In this document: piece after piece, positions 7,721 through 48,876 of the stretch | Numbering within the stretch: position 1 is the stretch's first letter | How the letters are laid out: every line of letters begins with the position of its first letter | NCBI GenBank assembly: GCA_964395625.1 | Contig: CAYNAR010000005.1 | Coordinates: 6,537 to 70,536, forward strand | DNA: 64,000 nucleotides | Source of the DNA: an uncultured Gammaproteobacteria bacterium | GTDB lineage: Bacteria; Patescibacteriota; Patescibacteriia; Patescibacteriales; WJLG01 | Reading direction: 5' to 3' | Notes under the pieces: generated by a model | Seen by the model: only the letters and a program-made list of their open reading frames with translations | What the model was told of the DNA's origin: nothing | The model's database searches: none | Translations under genes and position numbers: made by a program

Positions 7721-7762
7721 AAAAAACCCGCCGACCTCTTCGATCGAGCGGGTGTTTTTTTA
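7721..7762. terminator. Bidirectional terminator (A-run / GC hairpin / T-run) between tRNA-Gln (+) and ankyrin gene (-)
   Basis: AAAAAA-CCCGCCGA...UCGAGCGGG-UGUUUUUUU. The stop codon of the minus-strand ankyrin gene (7760-7762) lies in the T-run. Confidence 0.6.
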
Positions 7763-8782
7763 TTTCCACCATTTTTTCTTAGGAGATTCGGTTAAACTAT
7801 TCAAGTATTGCTCTATTCTTGTGTATCCCTTGCTTTTCGCATATTGCGATAGCGTCATGCCTTTGTAATAGCCTTTATAATCGGCTTTGCATTCCCCGAT
7901 CAGTACTTTCACGGAGTCGAGATGATTTCCGTCTATGGCTTTTGTTAAGGCTGTGTTGAATGAATCGTCGACCGATGTTACGGCAGCTTTATGTTTAACG
8001 AGAAGTCTTATTCCTTCTTCCCATCCGTGACTGGCGGCTATGATGAGCGCCGTCAATCCGCCTATATATCTGTGATTGACGTCGGCCTTTCTTTTTTCTA
8101 TGAATAATTCGACCATCCTCGCATTCTTAGCTTCAACGACTCCTTTCAATAAGTAGTTCGGATCGGTTACTGGGATAATGGGCTTATCTTTGATGTCTTT
8201 GAGGTCTAAAAAGTATTCGACTATATCGCTATGACAATTCGTCACCGCAATATTGAAAGGTGCCGGGTTAGGGTTTTTGCTGAAGTTTACATTCGCTCCG
8301 TTCTCGACAAGAAGCTTGACTATATCCAATCTTCCTTTCTCCACGGCTATTCCTAGCGGTGTTTGTCCTTGTTTGTTGGAGATATCGGTCTTCGCCCCGT
8401 TTTTTAAGAGGCATGATATTATGGATATTTCCCGATACTCGTCTTTGATAGCGACGAGAAGCGGAGTGTTTTCGTTTGTGTCGGTAAAATCCAAGTTAGC
8501 CCCTGCTGCGATAAGAATCTCGAGATCTTTGATTATTAGGTCGGGTAGATTGTTAACCCTTCTTGTTATCGCGAAAAAAATCGCTGACCTGCCAGTCTCT
8601 TTGGGGTCGGCAGAGTTGGGATTCCCGCCATTGTTCAAGAAGGTTTTGAGCCATTTGGTGTTGCCTCCTTTTTTGGCTATTTCTGCCACCCAGTCATTCA
8701 CCTGATCATTGTCGCAGGAATCATCACTGCTTATTTCGAACATCGGCTTTTTGTCTTGGTTCGTTTTTTCCGTGGTGATCAT
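7760..8782 (-). CDS. Ankyrin-repeat protein
   Basis: Multiple ~33-aa repeats with the ankyrin signature (e.g. 'GQTPLGIAVEKGRLDIVKLLVENGANVN', 'NTPLLVAIKDEY...CLLKNGAKTD', 'GLTALIIAASHGWEEGIRLLVKHKA'). Confidence 0.75.
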   Translation of the reverse strand: MITTEKTNQDKKPMFEISSDDSCDNDQVNDWVAEIAKKGGNTKWLKTFLNNGGNPNSADPKETGRSAIFFAITRRVNNLPDLIIKDLEILIAAGANLDFTDTNENTPLLVAIKDEYREISIISCLLKNGAKTDISNKQGQTPLGIAVEKGRLDIVKLLVENGANVNFSKNPNPAPFNIAVTNCHSDIVEYFLDLKDIKDKPIIPVTDPNYLLKGVVEAKNARMVELFIEKRKADVNHRYIGGLTALIIAASHGWEEGIRLLVKHKAAVTSVDDSFNTALTKAIDGNHLDSVKVLIGECKADYKGYYKGMTLSQYAKSKGYTRIEQYLNSLTESPKKKWWK

Positions 8783-12853: not shown

Positions 12854-14098
12854 TTGTCATTTGGCATTGTTATAATACCGAGTATGGAAAATTTCATTAA
12901 AAATTATCCGCGTCGCATAGGTATAGACGGTCGTTTCTATGGTCCTCTAGGGAAAGGTCTTGGCAGATATATACAAGAGATTGTGGATAATATTATAAAG
13001 ATAGATCAAAAGAACGAGTATGTGGTTTTTTTGAGTAAGGAGAATTTTGACGAGCTGAAAGTAACGAGTCCGCTGGTAAAAAAGGTTTTGGCTAACGTCA
13101 AATGGTATTCCTGGCAAGAGCAGCTTCTTATGCCTTTCCTGATTTTAAAGGAGGGGGTTGATTTGATGCATTTTCCGCATTTCAACGTGCCGATATTCTG
13201 TCCTACAAAATTCGTCGTCACCATACACGATTTGATTTTGACTCGTTTTCCAACGGTTCGTGCCAGCACTTTAGCTCCTTGGTTTTACAAATTGAAGAAT
13301 TTAGCATATCAGGCGGTTATATTTTTAGCCATAAAACGTTCCGAGAAGGTTATCGCGGTTTCGAATTTTACCAAAAGCGATATTGTGGAAAAGTTTAAAA
13401 TTAAGCCCTCGAAGATAGAAGTGACATATGAAGGTGTCACTAATTTGGCGCGAGAAAACGATTCTTTGTTCGTTAAAAAAGTCGATGACAAGGATGTCCT
13501 TTTAAGGTATAATATAACTACGCAAGAAGAGCGAGATGGGGATAAATTCATTCTTTATGTCGGCAATGTCTATCCCCATAAAAATTTAGAGAGTTTGTTG
13601 TCCGTTTTTTCCGGTTTTTGCAAGAAGTATCCGAATTATAGTCTAGTTTTGGTTGGTCGCGAAGATTATTTTTACAAAAGATTGAAAGATCGAGCAAAGG
13701 AGTTGAATCTTTGGCACGATGGTAACAGTAATAATCCAGTGATTTTCCCTGGCTACGTTCCCGACAGGGACTTGGAGGTTCTATATCGGTTGGCCGATTT
13801 TTATATTTTTCCGTCGCGCTATGAAGGGTTTGGTTTGCCACCGCTCGAGGCTATGTCCAAAGGATGTCCGGTAACGAGCTCCAATCAATCTTGCCTTCCC
13901 GAGATACTAGGGGATGCGGCACTGTATTTTGACCCGGATGACAAGTCTGATATTTTTGAAAAAATGGAAAGAATGGTTAGTGATGTGGAATTAAAGGATG
14001 TTTTAAGGAAGAAGGGGTACAGACAAGTTAAGCGGTATGATTGGTGGGAATGCGCTAGGCGTACGCTTAAAATATACGAGAGTGTTTTATTAAAATAA
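12854..14098 (+). CDS. Glycosyltransferase family 4 (GT-B, GT1 superfamily)
   Basis: C-terminal 'PSRYEGFGLPPLEAMSKGCPVTSSN' is the EX7E-type GT4 motif. Confidence 0.85.
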   Translation: MSFGIVIIPSMENFIKNYPRRIGIDGRFYGPLGKGLGRYIQEIVDNIIKIDQKNEYVVFLSKENFDELKVTSPLVKKVLANVKWYSWQEQLLMPFLILKEGVDLMHFPHFNVPIFCPTKFVVTIHDLILTRFPTVRASTLAPWFYKLKNLAYQAVIFLAIKRSEKVIAVSNFTKSDIVEKFKIKPSKIEVTYEGVTNLARENDSLFVKKVDDKDVLLRYNITTQEERDGDKFILYVGNVYPHKNLESLLSVFSGFCKKYPNYSLVLVGREDYFYKRLKDRAKELNLWHDGNSNNPVIFPGYVPDRDLEVLYRLADFYIFPSRYEGFGLPPLEAMSKGCPVTSSNQSCLPEILGDAALYFDPDDKSDIFEKMERMVSDVELKDVLRKKGYRQVKRYDWWECARRTLKIYESVLLK

Positions 14099-16638
14099 TG
14101 TTTTTAAAGGAAAAAGAAAATAAAAACGAGGTGTTTTTGGCACAGAGATCTATTGGAAGGGTTGTTGATCTAAGGAAGAAGGTTTTAGATTGCGTTAACG
14201 ACGAAGTTGCGCCTATTTGTCGTAAAGAAAAGAAGTTGAGGGCAAGAATCTTCGGCGCTAAGGGAAAAAAGCTTGATTTGCTTAAACCTTATCTTTTATT
14301 GGAAAAGAAGGACGAATTTATCGACAAGGAATTAATGGTCGAGGATTTGGATGAGAGGGAGGAGGCGCGTAAACACAGTCTTTTGACTCGTTTTTTCGGG
14401 TTTATTACGGGTGCTGCCAAATTTTGGTGGTTACCGATTTTTGTTATTAGACCGATCTGGAGATTGATTTGGAGAGTGAGGCGTGGGGATTTTGTCGGTG
14501 ATAAGGTTTTTTATAAAAAAGTAAGGAATCAAAAAGGTAATGACCGGAGAAGCGGCTTTTTTTATCCTTTTAAGCCTTTTAAACCTTTTAAACATGTCAT
14601 ATCCTTTTTAGTCGTGTCTTTGCTGGTGATCATTCCGATAAAAGTTTTCGGTTATTACAAAATTGTCGATATCGATAGTTTTAAAAGTAAGATGTTCGGA
14701 ATAGGGGGGAGTGGGCTCGAGAATCTTGGTTCTGCCGCCGATGCCGCCTCAATATTTAAACTTAACGCGGCCGCGGCTAGTTTTTCTTCGGCTAAAAATG
14801 ATTTCGCTAGGGCGGGAGAAGAGATGGGTAAGATAAATTCTCTTTTACTCGAAGCTGGAAAATTAGTACCTAATAAGAAAGTTCGTCTTGCCTCCTATGG
14901 TAAGGATTTCGCGGTTGCCGCGGAGTCAGCCGCTTCTTTGGGGGAAAATCTTTCCTTAGCTGCCAACTCTTTCTTTTCGGGGAAAGATAAGAAATTTTCG
15001 GAGATGGTGGAAGATTTTATTCGATATGAGCGCGCCGCTTCCGCTGACGCCACCAAACTGAATGATTCTTTATCTAGAATAGATTCTAAAGTTCTTCCCA
15101 AGGAGTATAGTGAGATTTTTGATAGAATAAAGGAAATATCCACCGATCTTGCCATGTTGATCGATAGTTCTTGCGATGCCGCTTCAAAAATAAATATATT
15201 TTTAGGGGCCGAAAAGGACAAACGCTATTTATTTGTTTTCCAAAATAACAGCGAAATGAGGGCTTCAGGCGGTTTTATAGGTAGTTTTGCCTTAGTAGAT
15301 TTTTCTCAAGGCAAAATAAAGAATATAGAGGTTCCTGAGGGTGGTAGCTATGATACTGAAGGTGGGCTCAGGGATTTTGTCACTGCGCCGGAGCCTTTGT
15401 GGCTTGTGAATCCTTTGTGGCATTTTTGGGATGCCAATTGGTGGCCAGATTGGAAGAAGAGTGCTCAAAAGTTGTCTTGGTTCTATGAGAAGAGCGATGG
15501 TCCGAGTGTGGATGGTGTAATATCCTTCACTCCGACTGTTTTGGAGAGGATATTGAAAGTTATCGGTCCTATAGATATGACCGAGGAGTACGGTGTCATT
15601 ATGGATTCTGACAATCTGTGGTTTAATCTGCGAGACATAATAGAGAAGGAAAAGGCTCAAGACTTAAAGATTTCCAACGAGGTTGCGGAAAAGAAGCCTA
15701 AAAGGGTGGTTGGTGATTTATTGAGGAAGATTATGGAGGAAATGCCGAAACGTTTGGATAAGGATAAATTCATCCAGCTTACCATGGTCTTGAATGATAG
15801 CTTGAATGATAAACAAGTTTTGTTTTATTTCGAGAATGAGGATTTACAGAAAGAAGCCGAGAAAAGAAATTGGGCGGGTAGAATTAAGGATACCGGAAAA
15901 GATTATTTGAGTGTCGTCAATACTAATATAGCTGGGGGTAAGAGTGATGGCAAAATGGAGGAAAAAATCAGTCATGAAGCTAAGGTTATGGAGGACGGTT
16001 CAATAATAGATACATTAATAATAAAAAAGAAGCATTTAGGCGTCGATGGAGAGCCTTATTTTGGCGTGCGCAATGTGAATTGGATGAGGGTCTATGTTCC
16101 CGAGGGTAGCGTCTTGCTAGAAGCTTCTGGGTTTAGAGGGCCAGATCCTATATATTTCGATTATCCTAGCGATGAATGGGGTGTCGATATTGACGTTGAG
16201 GAAGAGAATGGTGAAAATGCCGAAATAGATAGAAAGAATTTGAACACTAAGATATATAAAGAGAGCGGTAAAACGGTTTTTGCCAATTGGGTTATGGTGG
16301 ACCCGGGGCAGGAGGTCGTTATAAAGATAAAATATAAATTGCCTTTTAAGTTCGAGAAAAAGAGTCTTTATAGTGAAAAGAAGACGATTTTCGACGAGTT
16401 TATAGAGAAGGCCACGAAGACTAAGAAGAAAGATTTGTATATCTATTCGTTCATGGCTCAAAAGCAACCGGGAATGATATCTTCCTCTATAGAGTCTGAG
16501 TTCATCCCACCAGCGGAGTTCTCCACTGTTTGGAGCTATCCGGAGTCTTCCGGTGTTAAGGCTGGTTGGGTTGTGGATGAAAAATTTGATAGCGACAAAT
16601 ATTGGGCCTTGATGTTGGAAAGAGTGGATTCAGAATAA
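14098..16638 (+). CDS. Large membrane-anchored extracytoplasmic protein, DUF4012-like
   Basis: 846 aa with two N-terminal hydrophobic segments. Central 'YLFVFQNNSEMRASGGFIGSFALVDF...WLVNPLWHFWDANWWPDW' region matches what I recall of DUF4012; the family call is tentative. Tandem PFKPFKPFK repeat near 14565-14595. Confidence 0.55.
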   Translation: MFLKEKENKNEVFLAQRSIGRVVDLRKKVLDCVNDEVAPICRKEKKLRARIFGAKGKKLDLLKPYLLLEKKDEFIDKELMVEDLDEREEARKHSLLTRFFGFITGAAKFWWLPIFVIRPIWRLIWRVRRGDFVGDKVFYKKVRNQKGNDRRSGFFYPFKPFKPFKHVISFLVVSLLVIIPIKVFGYYKIVDIDSFKSKMFGIGGSGLENLGSAADAASIFKLNAAAASFSSAKNDFARAGEEMGKINSLLLEAGKLVPNKKVRLASYGKDFAVAAESAASLGENLSLAANSFFSGKDKKFSEMVEDFIRYERAASADATKLNDSLSRIDSKVLPKEYSEIFDRIKEISTDLAMLIDSSCDAASKINIFLGAEKDKRYLFVFQNNSEMRASGGFIGSFALVDFSQGKIKNIEVPEGGSYDTEGGLRDFVTAPEPLWLVNPLWHFWDANWWPDWKKSAQKLSWFYEKSDGPSVDGVISFTPTVLERILKVIGPIDMTEEYGVIMDSDNLWFNLRDIIEKEKAQDLKISNEVAEKKPKRVVGDLLRKIMEEMPKRLDKDKFIQLTMVLNDSLNDKQVLFYFENEDLQKEAEKRNWAGRIKDTGKDYLSVVNTNIAGGKSDGKMEEKISHEAKVMEDGSIIDTLIIKKKHLGVDGEPYFGVRNVNWMRVYVPEGSVLLEASGFRGPDPIYFDYPSDEWGVDIDVEEENGENAEIDRKNLNTKIYKESGKTVFANWVMVDPGQEVVIKIKYKLPFKFEKKSLYSEKKTIFDEFIEKATKTKKKDLYIYSFMAQKQPGMISSSIESEFIPPAEFSTVWSYPESSGVKAGWVVDEKFDSDKYWALMLERVDSE

Positions 16639-16642
16639 AAAT

Positions 16643-18634
16643 ATGGCAAATAAGATAAGAATCGAAAAACAAAAAGAAAGCGATGATGTTGGGAGTACTT
16701 CCGATGATTTTGTTAATGTGAGAGGGCGGGTTTCCAATGATGCGGAATCCCACCGCGAGGAAGAGATAGAAAAAAGCTTGGAAGAGATCTATCGCGATAA
16801 GGATGGTAAGAAGATCGATGTCGACAGGATAAACATAAATCGTCGCCAAGGTTTTATTTTTTGGTTTTTCAATCTCATAGTGTTTAGTTTAATAGCTATA
16901 GTCATAGGTCTTGGCGTTTATTACTATTTTGTCTATGGCAAGGTCGGTGATTCCTCATCATTGGATCTCAATGTCAAATGTCCGGAGGATGTGGTGTCTG
17001 GCGAGGAGTTTAAGTGCTACTTTACTTATAAAAATCCAGAATATGTGGCACTGAAGAACGTCACACTGTCTTTAAGCTATTCCGAAGATTTCATTTTTAT
17101 TTCCGGGCAACCACAAGCTTCCGGCGGACAGAATAATTGGGATATAGGACGAATAGAGGCTAAAAGCGAGGGGGTTGTTGAAATTATAGGCAAGATAATA
17201 GATAAAACCAAATCATCGTCGGTCATCCTGGCCAAAATGTCTTATGTGCCTGAGAATTTTTCCAGCGAGTTCAAGAAAGAGGCGTCTGCCACTATAAACA
17301 CTCGTAGTATAGGTTTCGATGCCAGTTTTAATTATTCGAATACGGCCTTAATCAATCAACAGGGGGAGATTAAAATCGATTTTACGCCATTGGAGAAAAA
17401 CTATTTTTCCGATTTTATAATTCGTCTAGAGAGAAGTGATAATTTTGAGATAAAAAACACTATAGTCAGTGGAAGGAGGCAGGGTGATAAGACGCCTCAG
17501 CCTAAGTTTAAAATAGAAAAGATTAAGGAAGAGGCTGTGGACTCTTGGATGGTTTCCGGTTTAGAAAAGGCTGAAAATTTCGAAATAATATACAAAGTCA
17601 AGGAGAAGAGCAATGAAAAGGAGAATTTGAAAATAAGCTTCGAACAGAATATTGGCGGAAAAAGATATGTTTTTCTGGAAAAGCCCATCGTTTTGGATTT
17701 AATGAAGAGCGATCTTAACCTTTCCTTGATAATGAATGGTTCACAGTCCGATAAGCCGGTTAACTTTGGCGATCGCCTTAACTATTCCATCGCTTACTCC
17801 AATAGGGGCGAGACGGCCTTGAAGGATGTCGCTATAACGGTCGCTTTAGATGGTGATTTTGTAGATTGGACGACATTGCAAGACAAAAACAAGGGGCGCG
17901 AGAAGGGGAATACGATAACTTGGACAAGTGATGAGTTGACAGCTTTGAAGGATATCGATGTTAACGAGAGCGGTTCGATAGATTTTTCTGTGGATGTCTT
18001 GCCTTTTTCGGAAAGCGATCTTTCTAAGGATTTTCAGATAAAGGCATTCGCTCAGTACAATATAAATAATTCCGGTGACGACGTCGGATCTTCAAGTGCT
18101 TCGATTGGGGCACAGGATAATCGTAGCAACACCATAACCAGTCTTATAAATAGTGATTTTAGCTTCAAGGAGGAGGCTCGCTATTTCGACGAGGACAATC
18201 TTCCCGTCGGCAACGGTCCTTTACCGCCGAAGGTTGGCGAAAAGACCAGTTTTAAAATATATTGGACCATAAATAATAATTTACACGATCTTAATGAGGT
18301 TTCAGTGGAGACCGTATTGCCAATAGGCGTAGAGTGGGATAGTCATAATCGCACTTCCGTCGGCACACTATCCTATGACGAGTCGAATAGGAAGGTCTAT
18401 TGGCAGATAGGTAGGTTGCCGATAACGGTTTTTAGGGCTGACGCCGAATTCAACATTTCTATTACCCCAAGCGATGAGAATAGAAATAAAATAATGGTTT
18501 TATTAGTTAATAGCAAGACGAGTGCTGTAGACGCCAAAACAGGTTCTTCTCTTGAGAAAATGGTCAAGGGTCAAACGACCAAATTGGATAGCGACGATAT
18601 CGCCAATATGTCGTCAGATGGTTTGGTGCGTTAG
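16643..18634 (+). CDS. Membrane-anchored protein with DUF11-type ('conserved repeat domain') repeats
   Basis: TM helix (FIFWFFNLIVFSLIAIVIGLGVYYYF). Two segments ('PEDVVSGEEFKCYFTYKNPEYVALKNVTLSLSY', 'PVNFGDRLNYSIAYSNRGETALKDVAITVAL') fit the DUF11 repeat pattern. Confidence 0.55.
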   Translation: MANKIRIEKQKESDDVGSTSDDFVNVRGRVSNDAESHREEEIEKSLEEIYRDKDGKKIDVDRININRRQGFIFWFFNLIVFSLIAIVIGLGVYYYFVYGKVGDSSSLDLNVKCPEDVVSGEEFKCYFTYKNPEYVALKNVTLSLSYSEDFIFISGQPQASGGQNNWDIGRIEAKSEGVVEIIGKIIDKTKSSSVILAKMSYVPENFSSEFKKEASATINTRSIGFDASFNYSNTALINQQGEIKIDFTPLEKNYFSDFIIRLERSDNFEIKNTIVSGRRQGDKTPQPKFKIEKIKEEAVDSWMVSGLEKAENFEIIYKVKEKSNEKENLKISFEQNIGGKRYVFLEKPIVLDLMKSDLNLSLIMNGSQSDKPVNFGDRLNYSIAYSNRGETALKDVAITVALDGDFVDWTTLQDKNKGREKGNTITWTSDELTALKDIDVNESGSIDFSVDVLPFSESDLSKDFQIKAFAQYNINNSGDDVGSSSASIGAQDNRSNTITSLINSDFSFKEEARYFDEDNLPVGNGPLPPKVGEKTSFKIYWTINNNLHDLNEVSVETVLPIGVEWDSHNRTSVGTLSYDESNRKVYWQIGRLPITVFRADAEFNISITPSDENRNKIMVLLVNSKTSAVDAKTGSSLEKMVKGQTTKLDSDDIANMSSDGLVR

Positions 18635-18639
18635 TTTTT

Positions 18640-21600
18640 TTGTGTTATAATTTAAAAAGAAAAGTTCTCAATAAAAATTATATAAAAAATATGACAAGGA
18701 GAGTTTACTCGTTTTTTATCTATTCAGCGGTGCTGCTGTTTTGTTTTTCTTTGTTTTTAGTCAAGCCTTTTTCAAACGGGTCCGTTTCGGCTCAGGTCGG
18801 CGATGCCATAGCTGTTAGAGTCTTGCCTAATCCAAAGCATTATAGCGCCATGGATTGGTACCTTAATCAAGGCTTTAAGGGAACTCCTACGCCGATGAAG
18901 GTGGATGGCTATGACGCCGTGAAGGATGGGCGCACGGTCTATGTCAATGTGGCCAATGTCATTAATGCTTGTGAATGTTATAACGAGAGCGAGACTTGTA
19001 ATTGTACTAAGAATACTCCGATTTGTAATTCTAAGATAAATTATAATTTTACGATAATTCCTGCCAGCGCTTTTTCTTCTAATTTGACAGCGGATTGTTT
19101 TAGAGGATATATCCCTAATTATATATCTCCTGGTTCTGCCTCTGATAATCCGGCAGGAATGGAAGCCAGATTTGTTCCTAATAGCTATGTTTCTCACTGC
19201 TCGACCTCTATAGCGCCGAATATCGAGTGGAGTTCTTCATACGATACCATTCCTCCGGATTGCCCTTCCTGCCCCTATAGCTCTGTTTATGAGATGAAGA
19301 CGGTTTCCGTGAGATATACTGGCAATATAAATCTCACAGAAACGGGAAAGTGGATGTTTGGTGCGGTTTGTGACGATAATTGTGAGCTTTATATAGATGG
19401 AAGCAAGGTTATGTCTTGCTATCAGCCATCTCGCATTCCTTTAATAACGGATGATGATGCTTGTAAGGGTAGTGTTAATTTATCAAGCGGAAGCCATTCG
19501 ATTGTTTTTAGGACGGCCAATAAGACTGATGATGGCCCAATGTCGGCTAGACTTTATTGGATAACACCAAGCAATCTCGCAGCCCAAGAAGGCTCTCCGA
19601 CAGTGACTTGCACACCTAATTATACCTCTTGCCCATGTAATGGAAGTGAGGATACTAGGTCGTGTGTAACTTCACGTACTCCAGTATCTTGTAGTTCCCC
19701 TCATGATGTTACTGATTGTTCCGGAAGCACCATCTATACGAATATTTATTTGATTTCTTATAATCAGGATGCCGATCCTGGTACTTTGTCTATTTTTGAC
19801 GGAGTCCTGTCTAAATGGAGGTTCAACACTAATTTGAATATCCCCGGTAAATGTTTTAACAGTGAAAAGGAGACCGTGTCCTGTTTGGCCGATGCCGATT
19901 GCGAATCCGGTTATTTCTGTAATAGCGAAAAAGCCAAATTGGTCCGTGATGTCATAAGGCTTGGCAACATCGTCGGCATTCGCGGAAAGATAGAGAATTA
20001 TGGAAAGAAGAATGGTAGATATCCAACCCTTTCCTCTGGTTCTTATTTGCCTGGGAAAACGGTCTCCACTTGGCCTTCGTGGAACTCAGCGCTTGGCTCC
20101 GCCTTGGGTGTGGAGCTTCCAGTCGATCCCGTTAATTTCTTGGGTAGGTGTAGTAGTGATGAGGCTTTGAATGCAAAGTACGATAAAAATACTTGCTGGA
20201 GCGACTCTGACAAGTCTTTTGCCGATTCTGACACCATCGACCCCAGCTTGAATTTACCTCCAGGAAGCAGTGCGATGGTCTACGAGTCTCGTAATGATGG
20301 TTTGGAGTATAACGCCTGTGCCTATATGGAATCCGGCTATCTGGTTGATGGGGAGATGGGGGCATGTAATGGGAGCTTTAATCCGAATCAAGCTCCGGTT
20401 ATAGACTGTGGAAGTCTTAAGGCCGTCGCCGGTCAACCGTTCGAGGGGTATGTGACTGCGAGAGATTCCGATGATTCCAATGTGACGCTTACTGTTTCTT
20501 TGCCTGAATCTACAGCTGCCATCTTCTCCGTTAAGAATACGCCGAGTACGGCGATAAAACAGATTTTTGCCGCTTATATCGAGGGCGGAGTTTCTGGGAC
20601 ATATGAATTGAATGCTACAGCTAGCGATAGTCATGGAAATACTGTCAATAAAGTTTGTAGCATTAACACACAAACACAAACTTTTACGACATATCCGGTG
20701 CCAGATCAAAGGGTTTTAGTCGGCAAGGCTTTGGATTTTCAAGTTTACGCCTTTCATTCTAATAAGAATTATTCCGGTTTAACCTTTAATTTTAGCGACC
20801 CGAGATTCTCTTGTTCTTATTCGCCAACTTTGATTTCCGATGGGCGAATGCGTTGCGATGTTAGCGTGACTGCCAATGCCAGGGTGTTGCCGACACAAAT
20901 CGAGGTTCATGTTTCAAATGCCGCAGGGGAGAGGTCTCCTTCACAAACTTTCTATTTCGAGGCGTATAATAACCCCCCAGTGATCAATCCTTTGAAATGT
21001 GCCAATAAGGTCAGGGTGAGCACCCTCCCTTCTGGAGAAGCTCCTGGTCATTATAATTACGAATGCAGAGTGACAGCAACCGACCCCGATGGGCATACTG
21101 TATCTTTTCCTCCGGGATCGATAACTGGCGATTTGAGTGCCGCTGGCCTAGTTCATAGTAATGCCGGTGTTATAAGTGGATTTACTTCTGCCAATTATCC
21201 TGGTAATTATAATATAAGGATAACGGCCGTCGACTCTTATGGTGCGGTGAGCGATCCGGTGGACCTCCCTCTTAAGATAGTCGATTTTTGTGGCGATGGG
21301 GTCAAGCAGACTTTGAATATGGAAGGTAAAGGAGGTCCTAAAGACGATGGTTACGAGGATTGTGATGGTTCTGATGGCGTTCCAACACCACAACAGTCTA
21401 GCCCGACATGGCAATATGGGTGTGGCGCCGACAATTGTGCGTATTTGAACGCCGGTTATTGCGGAGATGGTGTTCTGCAGTGGACTTATGGCGAGCAATG
21501 CGACGATGGAAACAATATAGATGGTGATGGTTGCAACACTTATAACGGTGAGACCCCGTCTTGTCAATGGGAGTGCAACGACGGAACCGTTACTAACGAA

Positions 21601-22767
21601 GGTGCAATTCATGAACAGTGCGATTTCGGACATGATATCAATTGTTGTGCCTCCTGCAACTACACAACAGGCCCAACGCAGTGGGTTGAAGTTGCAGGTG
21701 GGGATTCTTTGGCTAGTGGTGAGTCTACGTCTTTGAATATTCCTAGCTGTCGCGGAGTTGTTGGCGGAACTTTTGACGCCACTCCGATGCCTTATGGTGG
21801 ATCTGCCTCGGAGGAGTCTGGTCCGGCTATAGTTTTTATAACCGATCTTTCCGGAAGTATGTTTGATTCGACGTATGCTATCACTAAAGAAGCTATTAAA
21901 GAGAGTATAAACAGATTTTACAACGAAGCCAATGCTAAAGGGATAAGCATTCATGTTGGGACAATTACGACCTATTCGGGTGGAGTTCATGATATTATTA
22001 ATATTGGGAACATGAATGATGATTACGGTGGAAGTGTTAAAAAAGGTCAGCTAGACGGCAGTGTGACTACGTATGGAGCGCGAAGTGATCAACCAGCATT
22101 TATGGCATCGTTTAATCAAGCGGCCAAGATGCTTAATGATTACGGAGCTAAAGCGGCTGATGGGGAAAAATATATAATATTTGCCACCGATGGTTGGGAT
22201 AATAGTCCAGGAAACGAGCTTACCGGTGTACAGGCTATAAAAGACTCGGGAATAAAAATTTATATGGAGACCTTTAACAATTGGACAGCTGGTTTTAATA
22301 ATGGTTCTTTGAATATTAGTTCTTGTAGTTTGAATTTATGCTATTCACTACAGGATATTTGTAAATGGTCCAGTGATAATGGCGATTTCAATCTTTGTTT
22401 TAAAAATATCAACGTCGACGACTCTATTAACGCATCTTATAATGGTTATTGCTATTACGTTGGCAATAAGACGGCCGCCAACCCTCCCAGTGCGGCAGTC
22501 GTTCAGAGTCGTTTAGCTGCAATAAACACAAGAGTGGTGAATTTGATTTTGACTCGCATACCAAGCAATATAACTTACGCGGTCAATGGAGTCTCCAATC
22601 CCTTGTCTTCTTATAAAGATTCTCCTTTTACGCCTCCTAATCCTTGTGATATTTCCGGCTCCGGTTGTTCGCCATCGGTCTTTAATTTCTCCACGGCTTT
22701 TACTGGCAGTGGCGAGATGAACTATAGTAATTTTAAATTGAACATAATACCGCTTTGTAGTGAATAA
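18640..22767 (+). CDS. Giant (1375 aa) secreted Cys-rich surface protein: signal peptide, PA14-like, pseudopilin-like motif, Ig-like repeats, Myxococcus-type cysteine-rich repeats, vWA/MIDAS domain
   Basis: Signal peptide 'MTRRVYSFFIYSAVLLFCFSLFLV'. PA14-like 'GKWMFGAVCDDNCELYIDGSKV...ARLYW'. 'NGRYPTLSSG...LPVDPVNF' resembles the GspG/pseudopilin core. 'CGDGVLQWTYGEQCDDGNNIDGDGCNTY' is a cysteine-rich-repeat signature. 'AIVFITDLSGSMFDS...IIFATDGWDN' is a vWA MIDAS (DxSxS...T...D). More than 70 Cys. Confidence 0.85.
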   Translation: MCYNLKRKVLNKNYIKNMTRRVYSFFIYSAVLLFCFSLFLVKPFSNGSVSAQVGDAIAVRVLPNPKHYSAMDWYLNQGFKGTPTPMKVDGYDAVKDGRTVYVNVANVINACECYNESETCNCTKNTPICNSKINYNFTIIPASAFSSNLTADCFRGYIPNYISPGSASDNPAGMEARFVPNSYVSHCSTSIAPNIEWSSSYDTIPPDCPSCPYSSVYEMKTVSVRYTGNINLTETGKWMFGAVCDDNCELYIDGSKVMSCYQPSRIPLITDDDACKGSVNLSSGSHSIVFRTANKTDDGPMSARLYWITPSNLAAQEGSPTVTCTPNYTSCPCNGSEDTRSCVTSRTPVSCSSPHDVTDCSGSTIYTNIYLISYNQDADPGTLSIFDGVLSKWRFNTNLNIPGKCFNSEKETVSCLADADCESGYFCNSEKAKLVRDVIRLGNIVGIRGKIENYGKKNGRYPTLSSGSYLPGKTVSTWPSWNSALGSALGVELPVDPVNFLGRCSSDEALNAKYDKNTCWSDSDKSFADSDTIDPSLNLPPGSSAMVYESRNDGLEYNACAYMESGYLVDGEMGACNGSFNPNQAPVIDCGSLKAVAGQPFEGYVTARDSDDSNVTLTVSLPESTAAIFSVKNTPSTAIKQIFAAYIEGGVSGTYELNATASDSHGNTVNKVCSINTQTQTFTTYPVPDQRVLVGKALDFQVYAFHSNKNYSGLTFNFSDPRFSCSYSPTLISDGRMRCDVSVTANARVLPTQIEVHVSNAAGERSPSQTFYFEAYNNPPVINPLKCANKVRVSTLPSGEAPGHYNYECRVTATDPDGHTVSFPPGSITGDLSAAGLVHSNAGVISGFTSANYPGNYNIRITAVDSYGAVSDPVDLPLKIVDFCGDGVKQTLNMEGKGGPKDDGYEDCDGSDGVPTPQQSSPTWQYGCGADNCAYLNAGYCGDGVLQWTYGEQCDDGNNIDGDGCNTYNGETPSCQWECNDGTVTNEGAIHEQCDFGHDINCCASCNYTTGPTQWVEVAGGDSLASGESTSLNIPSCRGVVGGTFDATPMPYGGSASEESGPAIVFITDLSGSMFDSTYAITKEAIKESINRFYNEANAKGISIHVGTITTYSGGVHDIINIGNMNDDYGGSVKKGQLDGSVTTYGARSDQPAFMASFNQAAKMLNDYGAKAADGEKYIIFATDGWDNSPGNELTGVQAIKDSGIKIYMETFNNWTAGFNNGSLNISSCSLNLCYSLQDICKWSSDNGDFNLCFKNINVDDSINASYNGYCYYVGNKTAANPPSAAVVQSRLAAINTRVVNLILTRIPSNITYAVNGVSNPLSSYKDSPFTPPNPCDISGSGCSPSVFNFSTAFTGSGEMNYSNFKLNIIPLCSE

Positions 22768-22779
22768 AAAAGCAAAAAT

Positions 22780-23436
22780 ATGAACAACAAAAAAATATAT
22801 TTTATACTTTTGCCGGCGATATTGGTTTTATTTGTTCTAGTGGCGGTGATTTATTTTTCTGGCGCGACAAAGCCCAAGGAAATAGGAAAAGATCTTGGGA
22901 AAAATACAATCGTCGAGGATCCTGATAAGGTTGAGGTCAATTCTGCGAAAAATAATGTCGGCGGAAAGAAGTCCGGTAAGGCCGGTATTTTGAAGAATGC
23001 CGAAGAAGAGCGTAATGCCTCGATTTGTTTGGATTATGAAGACGAGGAGTATGCCGTCGGATGTATTTCCTTGGTAGCTCAAAAGACAAGAGATCTTGGC
23101 GCCTGCTCTTTAATAAAGAATCAGATGGAAATGGTTAAATGTTTTGATATGACATTGTTTAGTAAAGCGGCAGATGAAGGGAACGTTGAGTTTTGCAAGG
23201 AAATGAAGGAAGACGAGATGTCTAGGTCTTGCGTGGTTAATTTAGTGGAGCTTGGTAAAATTCAAAAAGGGGATTGCGGTAAATTTGAAAAAAGAGAGAA
23301 GGAGTATTGTGATAATTATTATTCCTATCTTGGCGATGTTGCAGCGGCTTATTCAGCTAATAACGAAGGAGATTGTGGCAATATTAATAACGAATCAGCC
23401 AAGGCTTATTGTCTTGACAAGTTCGCCGTCAGATGA
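22780..23436 (+). CDS. Small Cys-rich membrane-anchored or secreted protein
   Basis: N-terminal TM or signal anchor (IYFILLPAILVLFVLVAVIYF) then ~190 aa with 12 Cys. Immediately downstream of the giant surface protein and followed by a terminator. Confidence 0.55.
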   Translation: MNNKKIYFILLPAILVLFVLVAVIYFSGATKPKEIGKDLGKNTIVEDPDKVEVNSAKNNVGGKKSGKAGILKNAEEERNASICLDYEDEEYAVGCISLVAQKTRDLGACSLIKNQMEMVKCFDMTLFSKAADEGNVEFCKEMKEDEMSRSCVVNLVELGKIQKGDCGKFEKREKEYCDNYYSYLGDVAAAYSANNEGDCGNINNESAKAYCLDKFAVR

Positions 23437-23456
23437 TTTATTTGATGAATATAAAA

Positions 23457-23490
23457 ACAGCCGACAATCAAGCTGCCGGCTGTTTTTTTG
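23457..23490 (+). terminator. Rho-independent terminator closing the surface-protein cluster
   Basis: ACAGCCG...CGGCUGU stem followed by UUUUUUU. Confidence 0.55.
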
Positions 23491-23500
23491 ATAAAATGAT

Positions 23501-24577
23501 ATGAACAAAAAAATAGAGACAAGACACGGAAAATTAAAGATCCCTTTTTTTATGCCAGACGCGACTCGCGCCTTGGTGAAGTTTCTTTCCGTTGACGAAG
23601 TCGGTCGTGTCGGTGCTTCGGCTCTTGTCGTCAATACATTGCATCTTTACCTCGAGCCAGGCATGAAGGTGATAAAAAAAGCTGGTGGTGTCCATAAGTT
23701 TATGAATTGGAATGGTCCTTTACTTTCCGACTCAGGTGGTTATCAGGTTTTTTCCCTGATTCATAAGAATCCGAAGATGGGCAAGATAGATGATGAAGGC
23801 GCTATTTTCAAGTCCACCTCGGACGGCTCGACTCATGTTCTGACACCGGAGAAATCTATCCAAATACAATTCGATTTAGGTGTGGATATGATGGTTTGTT
23901 TGGATGATTGTCCACCTAATGAGTTTTCTCGCGAGCAAATAGAGAAGGCTATCGATAGAACGGTGGCTTGGGCTAAGAGATGTAAGATGGAATACGAGAA
24001 ACAGGTAAAGAAGCGGAGGATTAAGAATGCGGAAAGACCGTTGTTGTTTGCCGTGGTTCAAGGCGGTCCTTATCCGGAATTAAGAAGGGATTGTGCTAAG
24101 CGTCTGGTGGAGATTGGCTTCGACGGTTATGGCTTCGGTGGACGTCACTTTGATAAAGACGGGGTATTTCTAGAATCCGCCCTTAAGGCTGCTATAGAGC
24201 TTTTACCCAAAAATTCCTACAAGTTTGCCCTTGGAATAGGTGCTCCGGAGGATATTTTCCGTTGCTATGCCATTGGTTGGGAAATGTTCGACTGCGTGAT
24301 GCCGACGAGAGAGGGGCGCCACGGTAAGCTTTTCTATTGGAAGGGGCAGATTCCTGAAAAAATAACGAAAAAAGATTTCTATAAGACTATTAATATAGGT
24401 AATAGTCGTTTTGCTATGGATTTTTCCCCTATAAATAAAGATAGTTCTCTGCCGGAATTAAGAAATAATACTAAGGCTTATTTGCATCATTTGTTCAAGG
24501 TTGGTGATCCTTCTGGGTCGCGACTGGCCAGTCTTAATAATTTAGAGTTCTATTATCAGATAATGAAGGTTCTTTAG
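23501..24577 (+). CDS. tgt: tRNA-guanine transglycosylase family protein lacking the canonical zinc site
   Basis: 'LYLEPG', 'DMMVCLDDCPP' (catalytic Asp region), 'FAVVQGG', 'GFDGYGFGG', 'FDCVMPTR' and 'AYLHHL' are TGT signatures. The CxCxxC...H zinc-binding segment is replaced by a Cys-free 'FSPINKDSSLPELRNNTK'. Confidence 0.8.
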   Translation: MNKKIETRHGKLKIPFFMPDATRALVKFLSVDEVGRVGASALVVNTLHLYLEPGMKVIKKAGGVHKFMNWNGPLLSDSGGYQVFSLIHKNPKMGKIDDEGAIFKSTSDGSTHVLTPEKSIQIQFDLGVDMMVCLDDCPPNEFSREQIEKAIDRTVAWAKRCKMEYEKQVKKRRIKNAERPLLFAVVQGGPYPELRRDCAKRLVEIGFDGYGFGGRHFDKDGVFLESALKAAIELLPKNSYKFALGIGAPEDIFRCYAIGWEMFDCVMPTREGRHGKLFYWKGQIPEKITKKDFYKTINIGNSRFAMDFSPINKDSSLPELRNNTKAYLHHLFKVGDPSGSRLASLNNLEFYYQIMKVL

Positions 24578-24730: not shown

Positions 24731-25129
24731 CCAGGTAAGCAGATAGTCGCCCGTGTATAACGGGAGGAAAGTCCGGACTTCGAGGTTTTTGCTTTTGCAG
24801 CGACCGAAAGCGGCGGTGGGTAACGCCCACGAGGAGTAATCCTACGGAAAGTGCCACAGAGACTATACTAATTCCAAGCAATTGGAATAAAAGGTGAAAA
24901 GAATCTGGGTGCGGATGTTGGTTTTTAGGATATCCTGATCAATTTTCGCTACCGGATTCGCCCCCGAGCGATCGGGGTGACGCGGTAAACCCCGCCTGAA
25001 GCAAGGGCAAATTCTTCGTGTCAAAACGAAGAGGAACGTAGCCCGCACGAGCTACTGAGTAATCAGTGGCCAAGATTAATGACTATCACTTTGGCGACAA
25101 AGACAGAATCCGGCTTATAGTTTGCCTGG
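24731..25129 (+). ncRNA. rnpB: RNase P RNA (bacterial type, M1 RNA)
   Basis: Direct sequence match to universally conserved RNase P RNA blocks: 'GGGAGGAAAGUCCGG' (P4 5' strand), 'GGGUAACGCC', 'GAAAGUGCCACAGA', 'AGGGCAAA' and 3' 'ACAGAAUCCGGCUUAUAG' (P4 3' strand). P1 pairing CCAGGUAAGC...GUUUGCCUGG. No real CDS; only spurious overlapping minus-strand ORFs in the track. Confidence 0.85.
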
Positions 25130-25154
25130 AAATTATTAAAATTCAATAAATGTT

Positions 25155-36865: not shown

Positions 36866-36897
36866 AAAAAAACACCGGCTAGTGCCGGTGTTTTTTT
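36866..36897. terminator. Bidirectional terminator between the histidine kinase (+) and clpB (-)
   Basis: AAAAAAA-CACCGGC-UAGU-GCCGGUG-UUUUUUU. The clpB stop codon sits in the T-run. Confidence 0.65.
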
Positions 36898-39565
36898 AAT
36901 TCTTAACGCTTAGGACGACTTTATTCTCTAGTCCGAGATCGATTGACACTTTTGATCCTTCTTTAATCTTTCCCTCTATTATTTCCAGCGACAGTTCATC
37001 GAGTATTTTGCTCTGTATAAGTCTTTTGAGTGGTCTGGCTCCAAAGGTTATATCATAGCCCTCGTTGGCCAGCATCTTTTTCATCTTAGGGCTTATTTTT
37101 AGGACGATGTCTTTATTCCTTAGTCTGCTTTGAACCTTGGAAAGCTCTAGGTCGACTATGTTTTCCAAAGACTCTTTGTCGAGCGCTCTGAAAACCACTA
37201 TTTCGTCGATACGGTTCAAGAATTCCAGTTTGAAGTATTCTCTTAATTTGCCGTCTATTTGATTTTTCATCTCCTTGAAATCGTTTTCTTTGGCATTTTG
37301 GCCCTCGTTGTCTTTGAAGCCTATGGAGAATTTTTTGATTATCTCATTACCAAGATTCGAAGTCATTATTATGACGGTGTTCTTGAAATTTACGGTTCTA
37401 CCCTTGGAGTCGGTCAAGCGTCCATCGTCCAATAATTGCAGTAAGATGTTGAACACTTCCGGGTCGGCTTTCTCTACTTCATCGAAAAGTATTACGCTAT
37501 ATGGGCGTCGACGTATCTTTTCTGTCAATTGTCCGCCGTCGTCATGCCCGACATAACCCGGAGGTGAGCCGATTAGCTTGGCTACGCTATGTTTCTCCAT
37601 GTATTCGCTCATATCCACTCTGATCAAGGAATTTTCGTCGTCGAACAGGAAAGAGGCTAGTGATTTGGCTAGCTGCGTTTTTCCGACGCCGGTCGGGCCT
37701 ACGAATAAGAACGAGCCTATTGGTCTTCCTTCCTCGCCAATGCCTGCGCGAGAACGACGTATCGCATTAGCGATCGAATGTATGGCATCGTTTTGACCGA
37801 TGACTTTTTTCTTCAATTCTTCTTCCATGTGCGAAAGCTTGCTGATTTCGCTTTCCATCATTTTGGATACAGGAACACCTGTCCAGCGAGAGACTACTTT
37901 TGCGATGTCCTCGGCGTCTATCTCTTCTTTAAGGATGGATTGTCCTTTTTTCTGGATTTCCGATAATTCTTTTTCGGCTTTTTTGACTTGTTTTTCCAGT
38001 TCAGGAATTTGTCCGTAACGTATTTCCGCCACCTTCATTAAGTCGTCACCGCGTCTTTCGGCTATTTCCGATTGTATCTTTAGTTCGTCTATCTGCCTCT
38101 TGGATTGCCTTATTTTGGCGATGGCGTCTTTTTCATTCCGCCAATGCAATTCTAATTGATTCGCTTTTTCTTTCAGCTCTTCCAGTTTTTTATTTAATTC
38201 TTTTTCCGAGAAGTCGTTCTTCTTGTCTTTGAATCCGCCCATTTTTATTATCTCTAGGCGGCGAATCTCTTTTTTCATTTTTTCCAAATCTTCCGGAGTC
38301 GAGTCGACTTCCATGCGCAAGGCGGAAGTGGCTTCGTCGATCAGGTCGATGGCCTTGTCGGGAAGGAAACGATCGGATATATAACGACTGGAAAGTTTTA
38401 CGGCCGATATTAAAGCTTCATCGGTGATGCGTATGCCGTGATGTATTTCGTATTTTTCTTTAATGCCACGTAAAATATCCACTGTATCCTCCTCAGTTGG
38501 TTCGGCGACATAGACCGGCTGGAAACGACGTTCCAAGGCGGCATCTTTCTCGATGTATTTTTGATATTCTTTGGTGGTCGTAGCTCCTATGGTGCGTATT
38601 TTACCGCGAGCCAAGGCCGGTTTTAACATATTGGAAGCGTCCATAGCCCCCTCACTGGCACCGGCACCGACGATAGTGTGCAATTCATCGACGAACAATA
38701 TGATATTACCATCTTGAGATTCGATCTCTTTCAGGACGGCCTTCAGTCTTTCTTCGAACTCGCCACGGAATTTGGCACCGGCGATCAATGCGCCAAGATC
38801 AAGCGATACTAGTTTGCGGTTGCGTAAATTCTCCGGAACGTCATTGGCTATGATACGTTGCGCCAAGCCTTCCACGATGGCCGTTTTTCCTGTTCCGGCG
38901 TCTCCGATGAGGACAGGGTTGTTTTTTGTGCGTCTGAGTAAGACCTGCATTATCCTTCTGATTTCTGAATCGCGACCGATTACGGGGTCCAGTTTTTTTT
39001 GTTTGGCCAGCTCCGTCAAATCAACGGTGTATTTTTCCAAGACGCGATATCTTACCTCCGGATCCGGATCGGTTATCGTTTTATTTCCTCTTAATTCCGT
39101 TAAGATTTTAGCGACTTGCTCGTATTCCACGCCATACTTGTTCAATACTTCCTTGGCTATGGATTTTACATTGAGAATGGATAGGAAGATGTGCTCGGTG
39201 GAGATGAATTCATCCTTCATTTTGTCCGCTTCTTTTTTTGACCCCTCCAATACGAAAGCAGCCTCAGCGGTTCCTGACACTGTGCCTACATTGCCATTAT
39301 TAAAGGGGGAGTGGTTGTTTATTTGCGGTTTTGCCGGATTCTTTTTGGCCGTCTTTTCCAATTCATCTAAAATTTCTTCATGTATATCTTCGGGGTCTAT
39401 AGCCATTTTTTCGAGAATCGGTTTCACCAAGCTCTCGTCTTGCTCCAAAAGGGAGCAGAGGAGGTGGGAGGCCTCGATATTTACTTGCCCGTATTCTTGG
39501 GCTATTATTTGAGCATTTATTATAGCTTCCTGAGACTTTGTAGTGAATTTATTGAACATATTCAT
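36896..39565 (-). CDS. clpB: ATP-dependent chaperone ClpB (Hsp100 disaggregase)
   Basis: Clp N-domain, two AAA+ modules (Walker A 'GDAGTGKTA' and 'GPTGVGKTQ') separated by a long coiled-coil M-domain. 889 aa. Confidence 0.95.
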
Positions 39566-44733: not shown

Positions 44734-45096
44734 ATGAACAACTCCAATTCTTCCACTACCTCAATCGTTATAGCGGATATTTTTTGGAATATCTTGTTTT
44801 TTCCTATCTGGTGGTATTCCATCGGGTTAGTAGAATTCTTAAAAAAAATAAAAGTTTTTTTAAGCGATAAGCAAAAGTCGCTCGGCCTTTTCGTTTGGAT
44901 AAAGAATATTTTTGTCCCCATGTACGGACAGAAGGATTTTCAGGGTGTCATGATAAGTATCGTAATGCGCTTCATTCAAATAGTGTTTAGATTTTTGGCG
45001 ATGGTTTTTTGGTGTTTGGTGTCTTTTGTCGCCGTACTAGCGTGGTTGTCTTTTCCGATTTTATCGGTTTGGGGGATATTTTATCAAATCTTTTAA
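44734..45096 (+). CDS. Hypothetical small membrane protein (3 TM)
   Basis: Hydrophobic 120-aa ORF immediately upstream of the membrane-anchored Clp-like ATPase. Confidence 0.45.
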   Translation: MNNSNSSTTSIVIADIFWNILFFPIWWYSIGLVEFLKKIKVFLSDKQKSLGLFVWIKNIFVPMYGQKDFQGVMISIVMRFIQIVFRFLAMVFWCLVSFVAVLAWLSFPILSVWGIFYQIF

Positions 45097-45101
45097 TTCT
45101 T

Positions 45102-48875: not shown

Positions 48876-48876
48876 T

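Follow-up and report, generated by a model that had tools for sequence, protein, structure and literature searches.

Do four neighbouring genes for surface proteins in an uncultured Patescibacterium encode one dedicated apparatus, or are they a composite of separate units? This question is raised by a 64,000-nucleotide stretch of the contig CAYNAR010000005.1 (the window hereafter), in which four open reading frames (ORFs) encode a membrane protein with a DUF4012 domain (ORF1), a membrane protein with DUF11 repeats (ORF2), a giant secreted cysteine-rich protein (ORF3) and a small membrane-anchored cysteine-rich protein (ORF4). A first-pass annotation had regarded the four genes as a dedicated adhesion or surface-layer apparatus of a small-genome organism of the Candidate Phyla Radiation (CPR) type. 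The assignment of the organism agrees with the named homologues, which are almost all labelled as Patescibacteria, mostly Falkowbacteria or Parcubacteria; several homologues titled 'uncultured Gammaproteobacteria' look mislabelled. To our knowledge, host recognition and attachment by uncultivated Patescibacteria are largely unknown beyond the type IV pili of a few cultured Saccharibacteria. On balance, we favour the view that the locus is a composite of two units, a conserved envelope module formed by ORF1, ORF2 and a family 4 glycosyltransferase (GT4) gene, and an accessory adhesin cassette consisting of ORF3 and ORF4. This view is taken because the GT4-DUF4012-DUF11 genes usually occur without the giant, and the giant family is mostly found elsewhere.

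Gene order in relatives of the window

For the comparison of gene order, one genome per species was scanned with an alignment of the ORF2 family, which gave 184 confirmed matches, and the best 80 were kept. The neighbours in these 80 species loci were classified by phmmer, and the denominators given are the loci with enough flanking sequence. Of 66 such loci, 56 have a DUF4012 gene upstream of the DUF11 gene and on the same strand; in 54 the two are immediate neighbours, and in 38 relatives the gene directly before the DUF4012 gene encodes a GT4 enzyme. The GT4, DUF4012 and DUF11 genes are a translationally coupled module, which is vertically inherited and conserved across Falkowbacteria-like Patescibacteria. 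Downstream, the DUF11 gene has tgt as its immediate neighbour in 53 of 73 loci; only 13 of the 73 carry a giant homologue between the two genes. In a neighbour-joining tree of ORF2, the loci with a giant group together. In the clade of the window, the giant and the four-gene order are present in all 11 loci with downstream data, the window included; three further giant-bearing loci belong to a neighbouring clade, and there are none among the roughly 50 remaining loci.

A wider set was obtained by scanning metagenome contigs with the N-terminal module of the giant (the N-module), and 80 further loci were kept. The gene before the giant belongs to the DUF11 family in 4 of 42 of these loci according to a script count, plus one locus (L142) recognised by eye. 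Thus, the linkage that the first-pass annotation had expected across relatives holds for the GT4-DUF4012-DUF11 genes and fails for the giant, and the arrangement in the window is a minority context for the giant family, because metagenome loci seldom have a DUF11 gene before the giant. In about 18 of the 42 loci, the preceding gene encodes a secreted protein of 1,100-2,260 aa, and four of the five of these large upstream proteins that were scanned carry PF18895, an N-terminal T4SS_pilin domain, followed by TIG, Big_5 or fn3 domains. Moreover, the distant giant homologues P0108 and P0048 have no DUF4012 or DUF11 neighbour, and an ORF4-family gene still lies directly downstream.

These data bear on the reading that all four proteins form one dedicated apparatus, in which the giant would depend on the DUF4012 protein and the DUF11/CLIPPER membrane stalk for its assembly or anchoring, possibly after glycosylation by the neighbouring glycosyltransferases. 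It would fit this reading that the four genes are indeed co-directional, tightly spaced and followed by one common terminator, as annotated, and that the giant occupies the exact slot in the 13 species and throughout the window's clade despite an identity of only 33-52% among the giants in the slot; the same adjacency recurs in another 4-5 of the 42 metagenome loci. However, tgt directly follows the DUF11 gene in most species, in at least one genome of this tgt type a giant homologue seems to be located elsewhere (P0048 and P0162 have the same longest contig of 301,472 bp, yet do not lie within one 22-kb stretch), and N-module genes mostly stand behind giants with a PF18895 domain. Furthermore, adjacency alone is weak evidence, because synteny in these genomes extends far past the cluster (rubrerythrin, YdjM and SPOUT upstream; tgt, the priming glycosyltransferase and GT4 genes downstream). 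A single four-gene apparatus is in our view unlikely, and what stands of this claim is the stable gene order in the clade of the window.

Several observations were made on the same slot and on the upstream partners. In many metagenome loci, the PF18895 genes lie 5-35 nt upstream of the giants carrying the N-module, which looks like a second, commoner partnership; PF18895 proteins of 1,600-2,100 aa are encoded at L140:4976-9877, L150:3884-9838, L164:3451-9870 and L167:4024-9819. A genuine modular type IV pilin with N_methyl and C-terminal Fib_succ_major domains takes the place of the giant before tgt in another species (L044:11859-12962), and accessory surface genes may thus have a hot spot in this slot behind the DUF11-family gene. 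In a further locus, a 302-aa ORF consisting of a signal peptide and the N-module only lies between a full-length giant and tgt, and no ORF4-family gene is present there (L021:5548-6456).

The giant protein and its small partner

The giant protein encoded by ORF3 begins with a Sec-type signal peptide, which is followed by the N-module, three tandem Ig-like domains, cysteine-rich acidic repeats, a VWA domain and a terminal beta-sandwich (Table 1). The mature chain contains 55 cysteines, and the cysteine content of ORF3 and ORF4 (4.1% and 4.6%) is high as compared to 0.3-0.4% in ORF1 and ORF2. The earlier DUF4012, DUF11, VWA, Ig-like and Myxococcus-type repeat calls are all supported by Pfam and NCBIfam hidden Markov models (HMMs). 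For ORF3, these are Big_9 (28.1 bits) and He_PIG (26.4 bits) in the Ig stalk, the Myxococcus-type repeat TIGR02232 at residues 939-967 (31 bits, cut-off 20.8) and VWA (PF00092; 26.8 to 30.4 bits, cut-off 23.8), whereas DUF4215 stays under its cut-off of 27 with 21.9 to 24.4 bits. The metal ion-dependent adhesion site (MIDAS) of the VWA domain is complete, as had been proposed: DLSGS follows beta1, TTYG lies in the alpha2-alpha3 loop and TDG follows beta4, which are the canonical positions and agree with the beta-alpha topology of the P0003 model described below. With the VWA domain and the Ig stalk, the giant thus carries adhesin-type modules, and the first-pass annotation is supported on this point.

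The domain order is supported by an AlphaFold2 (AF2) model of the orthologue P0003, which lacks the insert described below. The model has an overall predicted local distance difference test (pLDDT) of 81.5 and consists of the N-module, three Ig-like domains, a cysteine-rich stretch of low confidence (pLDDT below 50), a VWA fold in the order beta1-alpha1-beta2-beta3-alpha2-alpha3-beta4-alpha4-beta5 and a terminal beta-sandwich. When the whole 1,100-aa model was compared by Foldseek, all matches were of the tandem Ig or cadherin type (cadherins, titin and the S-layer protein SbsB), and this search is therefore uninformative on the N-module. A profile of the giant family likewise matched PDB sequences in the Ig region only, including the cadherin-like modules of S. 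aureus SraP (E = 1.6e-10).

The N-module is the constant part of the family. All homologues align to ORF3 residues of about 25-107 and then from 356 onward. No Pfam model describes the N-module, and its family comprises at least 1,236 clusters at 50% identity (408 at E <= 1e-30), which is a lower bound. The module is always located near the N-terminus, in proteins of about 290-1,900 aa, and is followed by He_PIG/Big_9 Ig domains and then by variable C-terminal heads such as VWA, NHL, SGL, CarboxypepD_reg, LVIVD, TSP1, cadherin or Fib_succ, which vary even within one chromosomal slot. Modelled alone with AF2, the N-module reaches a pLDDT of 90.1 and a predicted template modelling score of 0.88. 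The model is suggestive of a Mog1/PsbP-like beta subdomain joined to a truncated pilin-like subdomain, with a weak likeness to pilins. Of 2,686 ORFs, just two are true prepilins, and both are retrieved by a profile of the second subdomain, with the alpha1C motif aligned (E about 1.5e-4).

The pilin likeness leads to the alternative that the giant is a type IV pilus-associated adhesin, which would be exported by Sec and not polymerised, and whose truncated pilin-like subdomain would dock on the pilus tip or on minor pilins. Its functional counterparts would be PilY1 or the Streptococcus sanguinis protein PilB, a modular pilin that combines a pilin with VWA (PMC8179133). As in the modular type IV pilins, an adhesive VWA domain with the DxSxS...T...D residues is preceded by an element that is weakly pilin-like in the giant, and a constant N-terminal module carries many interchangeable binding modules. 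However, ORF3 has a Sec-type and not a class III signal peptide (it starts with MTRRVYSFFIYSAVLLFCFSLFLVKPFSNGSVSA/Q, has no G-[FM]-T-L-I-E motif and no N_methyl match), and the polymerising hydrophobic alpha1N is absent. In contrast to these pilins, the giant adds the beta subdomain, three Ig domains, cysteine-rich repeats and a PA14-like insert. A pilus-docked giant seems improbable to us. A broader reading, to which we give a small but somewhat higher chance, takes the N-module for a Patescibacteria-specific, non-covalent adaptor for surface display, which would plug Sec-secreted interchangeable heads onto a membrane partner or onto type IV pili; ORF4-family proteins, short transmembrane (TM) proteins and PF18895 giants may be the membrane partners.

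The N-module of ORF3 is interrupted by a cysteine-rich insert (residues 108-355), which is found in only P0001 and P0004 among 212 other family members. The call of the proposed PA14-like fold is marginal: PA14 (PF07691) scores 26.4 bits with the whole ORF3 and 23.7 bits with the insert alone (cut-off 24), and the alignment is a fragment of 41 of the 147 model positions (44-84). Both the PA14 model and PA14 chains in PDB can be aligned to the core motif ...RYTGNINLTETGKWMFGAVCDDNCELYIDG..., and the profile of the insert gave only three PDB hits, which are all PA14 proteins, one of them Vip4Da1, at weak E-values of 0.1-0.2. When only the insert (residues 106-361) was used to search for homologues, no match was obtained even though P0001 carries the insert, which reflects the word-index limit of the search.

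The C-terminus of ORF3 (...NFKLNIIPLCSE) contains no LPXTG motif, and no TM-like window occurs outside the signal peptide, so that no sortase anchor was recognised. A conserved cysteine lies 2-4 residues from the C-terminus in all 23 VWA-type orthologues examined (window 22750-22767, e.g. ...IIPLCSE), in the patterns ...P-x-C-x(1-3) or ...x-x-C-x-x, and fits no known sorting signal. An odd number of cysteines was also considered as a sign of an intermolecular disulfide and was rejected, because the parity is inconsistent among the orthologues. A literature search for giant cysteine-rich surface proteins of Patescibacteria yielded nothing relevant.

ORF4 has an N-terminal TM helix (hydropathy 3.16) and ten cysteines, which are arranged as five C-x11-12-C repeats (pairs 83/95, 109/121, 139/151, 166/177 and 199/211). 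No Pfam model matched ORF4, and its family profile found no relative in PDB. In an iterative profile search of the first set, 12 of 13 distinct loci, among them loci without DUF4012 or DUF11 genes, had a member of the ORF4 family as the very next gene after the giant. The family members have 207-303 aa, and nearly all share the cysteine spacing of ORF4. The more distant partners of the family have additional C-terminal acidic repeats of the DxDxDG type (L004:13292-14143, L006:12671-13525, L075:14713-15624, L036:9151-9933 and L043:6178-6945); in both members tested (L004 and L006), these were assigned by Pfam to the bacterial TSP3 calcium-binding repeats, which the ORF4 of the window does not have.

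We thus propose that the cassette, located after the DUF11 gene and before tgt in the clade of the window, encodes a Sec-secreted, disulfide-rich modular adhesin and its membrane partner. The constant N-module would be the cell-proximal docking end, the three Ig-like domains and the cysteine-rich spacer would form the stalk, and the VWA domain with its intact MIDAS and the lineage-specific PA14-like lectin insert would be the ligand-binding parts, which may recognise protein or glycan ligands on host cells or surfaces. ORF4, with five putatively disulfide-bridged repeats, may hold the anchorless giant at the membrane, as its position next to the giant suggests.

Five observations weigh against this proposal. 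First, the gene after the giant belongs to the ORF4 family in just 13 of 48 cases of the wider family and encodes a short cysteine-free TM protein in about 16, so that the idea of a tether rests on adjacency. Second, Foldseek found no significant structural match for the N-module (best E = 0.067, none below 0.001), and the label of a docking end is therefore a guess from the constancy of the module. Third, the insert of P0004, which is 36% identical, gives no PA14 match with the HMM, and the PA14 call of ORF3 is itself marginal. Fourth, the MIDAS is intact in the close relatives of the window and in a distant group with DTSGSM, whereas it is degenerate in orthologues at middle distance; thus, metal-dependent binding is not family-wide. 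Fifth, the four-gene order is kept in every locus of the window's clade with data, and functional coupling of the giant to ORF1 and ORF2 is therefore possible there.

Instead of an adhesin, the giant could conceivably be an effector that is secreted or shed, for example a toxin-like protein, a matrix protein or a scavenger of metals or ligands, with ORF4 as immunity, chaperone or maturation factor of this disulfide-rich protein. In favour of an effector, ORF3 has no covalent anchor motif; VWA and PA14 domains occur in toxins too, the insert profile matches Vip4Da1, and a small gene directly downstream is a common layout for immunity proteins and chaperones. However, scans with Pfam and NCBIfam detected no enzymatic or toxin domain in ORF3, ORF4 is devoid of a CxxC redox motif, and an Ig stalk with variable binding heads is the architecture of fibrillar adhesins (PMC12617251). 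We consider a shed effector very improbable and retain the adhesin cassette as the preferred interpretation.

The probable envelope module and comparison with known surface systems

The products of the cluster had been annotated as membrane or secreted proteins, and this is borne out by TM helices in ORF1, ORF2 and ORF4 and the Sec signal peptide of ORF3. ORF1 matches DUF4012 (PF13196) at residues 374-506 with 92.4 bits (cut-off 28). A single TM helix at about residues 165-190 (hydropathy) precedes a large DUF4012 ectodomain, in which the polar motifs QNNxExRxxGGFxGS, GGSYDT, FWDANWWPDW, TNIAGxKSD and RNVxWxRxYVPxGS are invariant. An exact-sequence look-up of ORF1 returned no record, and its family profile found no relative among the PDB sequences. 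We know of no function that has been assigned to the DUF4012 family. ORF2 matches DUF11 (PF01345) in two stretches with 41.4 bits (cut-off 24.6) and gives weaker, sub-threshold matches to DUF7619 and DUF7507. Because its single TM helix lies at residues 70-98 (hydropathy), behind a cytoplasmic head of roughly 70 aa, ORF2 is a type-II membrane protein. The members of its family have about 665 aa, one strictly kept architecture and about 40% identity across Falkowbacteria and Parcubacteria. The name of DUF11 is now CLIPPER, which denotes a CnaA-like stalk domain, often with an isopeptide bond (PMC12617251). In PDB, the ORF2 family profile retrieved no match, solved CLIPPER chains included.

An enrichment of DUF4012 in the genomes of CPR and Gram-positive bacteria has been described, as has the presence of its genes in exopolysaccharide (EPS) loci (PMC6744442, PMC5412050). 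As the module has glycosyltransferase neighbours and DUF4012 genes belong to EPS loci of Gram-positive bacteria, its role is probably in making or organising a cell-envelope polymer. Like the DUF4012 genes in Gram-positive loci for EPS or capsular polysaccharide (CPS), such as BL105A_0406 of Bifidobacterium longum 105-A or the CPR-enriched family fam000574, ORF1 is located among glycosyltransferases and near a Bac_transf priming transferase. In contrast to these loci, the DUF4012 gene is here fixed beside the gene of a DUF11/CLIPPER membrane protein, and no Wzz or Wzy gene is adjacent among the ORFs scanned. Indeed, among the part of the window's ORFs that was scanned, Bac_transf and several GT4 enzymes were present and no Wzz, Wzy or flippase family was found.

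The adhesin cassette can be compared with the fibrillar adhesins of monoderm bacteria, such as SraP of S. aureus or the adhesins with CLIPPER/DUF11 stalks (PMC12617251), with which the giant shares the signal peptide, the tandem Ig-like stalk and a terminal binding domain. However, the giant has neither LPXTG or another sorting motif nor a serine-rich region, and its constant module is N-terminal and unannotated. The CLIPPER adhesins differ further, as the DUF11/CLIPPER domains are here in a separate, N-terminally anchored protein (ORF2) and not in the adhesin; Pfam and hydropathy revealed neither an adhesive domain nor a sorting motif in ORF2, which is not the layout of a CLIPPER-type fibrillar adhesin. 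With the PA14 lectin domains of the anthrax protective antigen, the yeast Flo/Epa adhesins and RsgI3 of C. thermocellum, the giant shares the alignment of the core motif. However, the match of ORF3 is marginal and covers a fragment only, and the PA14-like part interrupts a loop of another domain and has an unusually high cysteine content.

A further surface system is represented by the Pam pili of CPR bacteria, which are reported mainly from Saccharimonadia and Microgenomatia and consist of Ig pilins joined by donor-strand exchange, with membrane-anchored PapD-like chaperones (bioRxiv 10.64898/2026.03.03.709456). The likeness lies in a Patescibacteria-specific surface system with Sec-exported Ig-like proteins and membrane-anchored helpers. 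The assignment to the Pam system was rejected, since Pfam revealed no PapD/FimC-type chaperone, no chaperone-usher family and no small pilin set in ORF1 to ORF4; the two systems are set apart by description. Taken together, the locus would work like a modular fibrillar adhesin and shares the logic of the modular pilins, yet it lacks the defining features of modular pilins (the class III signal), of LPXTG-anchored proteins and of Pam pili.

Layout of the locus and significance

The coordinates of the locus and of further features of the window are given in Table 1. The gaps between the GT4 gene and ORF1, ORF1 and ORF2, ORF2 and ORF3, and ORF3 and ORF4 are -1, 4, 5 (or 56) and 12 nt, respectively, and the stop of the GT4 gene overlaps the start of ORF1 in the sequence TAATG. 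The two values for the third gap reflect two possible starts of ORF3. An ORF of 1375 aa is present from the TTG codon at 18640, as annotated. The start is probably the ATG at 18691, which gives 1358 aa, because the 96% identical database protein P0001 begins at this methionine and because a classical Sec signal peptide then remains. The spacer upstream of this ATG contains an extended -10-like element (TGTTATAAT, 18643-18651) that was read from the sequence; a generic promoter scan of the cluster region was uninformative. A generic terminator scan of the same region did not rise above the shuffled expectation and was not used, and the terminator was judged by folding: the hairpin after ORF4 has a minimum free energy of -17.3 kcal/mol and a fold z of -3.1. 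The location of the cluster between glycosyltransferases stands for the GT4 gene upstream and the genes from 25155 onward downstream, with the qualification that tgt and the RNase P RNA gene intervene.

The GC content at third codon positions is 0.40 in ORF3 and about 0.43 in its neighbours. A foreign origin of ORF3 was considered by this measure with a negative result, as the raised overall GC content of ORF3 is due to its amino acid content. Because its third codon positions resemble those of the neighbours, the cassette appears to be long resident, with no sign of recent import. A repeat search over the cluster found only short repeats at chance level. The starts of ORF4 (22775-22797) and tgt (23493-23515) have a 23-nt A-rich stretch in common, AAAAT(G)ATATGAACAA(C)AAAAAAATA, with 78% identity, which is probably due to chance, and an antisense ORF of 280 aa inside ORF3 is taken as a by-product of the composition of the sense strand.

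Table 1 Features of the cluster and of the window (window positions)
Feature	Position	Strand	Remarks
Ankyrin-repeat gene	7760-8782	-	340 aa; Ank_2 149.5 bits
GT4 glycosyltransferase	12854-14098	+	Pfam Glycos_transf_1 113.7 bits; first gene of the GT4-DUF4012-DUF11 module
ORF1	14098-16638	+	846 aa; DUF4012 membrane protein
ORF2	16643-18634	+	663 aa; DUF11/CLIPPER type-II membrane protein
ORF2/ORF3 spacer	18635-18690	+	56 nt; seam between the two modules
ORF3 (giant)	18640-22767	+	1375 aa if counted from TTG
ORF3, Sec-type signal peptide	18691-18792	+	MTRRVYSFF...SVSA/QVGD; N-terminal hydropathy peak 2.18
ORF3, N-module, first half of beta-rich subdomain	18796-18960	+
ORF3, lineage-specific Cys-rich insert	18961-19704	+	residues 108-355; weakly PA14-like
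ORF3, N-module, second half	19705-20391	+	rest of beta subdomain, long helix and small sheet (pilin-like), disulfide knots
ORF3, stalk	20392-21288	+	three tandem Ig-like domains
Antisense ORF inside ORF3	21148-21990	-	280 aa
ORF3, Cys-rich acidic repeats	21289-21828	+	CGDG...CDDGN, then short beta segment into VWA
ORF3, VWA domain	21829-22269	+	with MIDAS
ORF3, C-terminal Cys-containing region and beta-sandwich	22270-22767	+	model strands at P0003 residues 1034-1097
ORF4	22780-23436	+	218 aa; small membrane-anchored Cys-rich protein
Terminator-like hairpin and T-run	23457-23489	+	intrinsic; after ORF4; AACAGCCG...CGGCTGTTTTTTT
tgt	23501-24577		between cluster and downstream glycosyltransferases
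Bacterial class A RNase P RNA	24731-25133		200 bits; between tgt and priming glycosyltransferase; absent from the first-pass annotation
Bac_transf priming transferase	25155		Pfam
GT4 glycosyltransferases, downstream	26589 and 28132		Pfam
ClpB-like AAA+ chaperone, first	36896-39565	-
WecG/TagA-type glycosyltransferase fused to NUDIX	40103-41347
ClpB-like AAA+ chaperone, second	45009-47846	+	divergent N-terminal half
queH	48832-49788		queuosine pathway

The remainder of the window consists of housekeeping genes, among which some features deserve mention. The ankyrin-repeat protein is an instance of a eukaryote-like repeat in a small-genome bacterium, and its gene is the only Pfam-supported minus-strand gene that was found upstream of the cluster. 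Moreover, two genes for ClpB-like AAA+ chaperones lie within 10 kb, a WecG/TagA-type glycosyltransferase is fused to a NUDIX domain, and the 64 kb contain two genes of the queuosine pathway, tgt and queH.

As it stands, the finding is a bioinformatic description of adhesin-like genes and brings no new mechanism. The N-module family and the GT4-DUF4012-CLIPPER trio are more interesting than the four-gene apparatus itself. The trio is strongly conserved in the sampled ORF2-bearing Falkowbacteria-like lineages and is thus a candidate for a core unit of envelope biogenesis. A large secreted family with one constant, uncharacterised N-module and many heads is the pattern expected of proteins for the recognition of hosts or surfaces that are under diversifying pressure. 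If the N-module were indeed an adaptor for surface display, it would represent an anchoring system distinct from anchoring by sortases, S-layer-homology domains or lipoproteins, and the swapping of heads would set the host range of these episymbionts.

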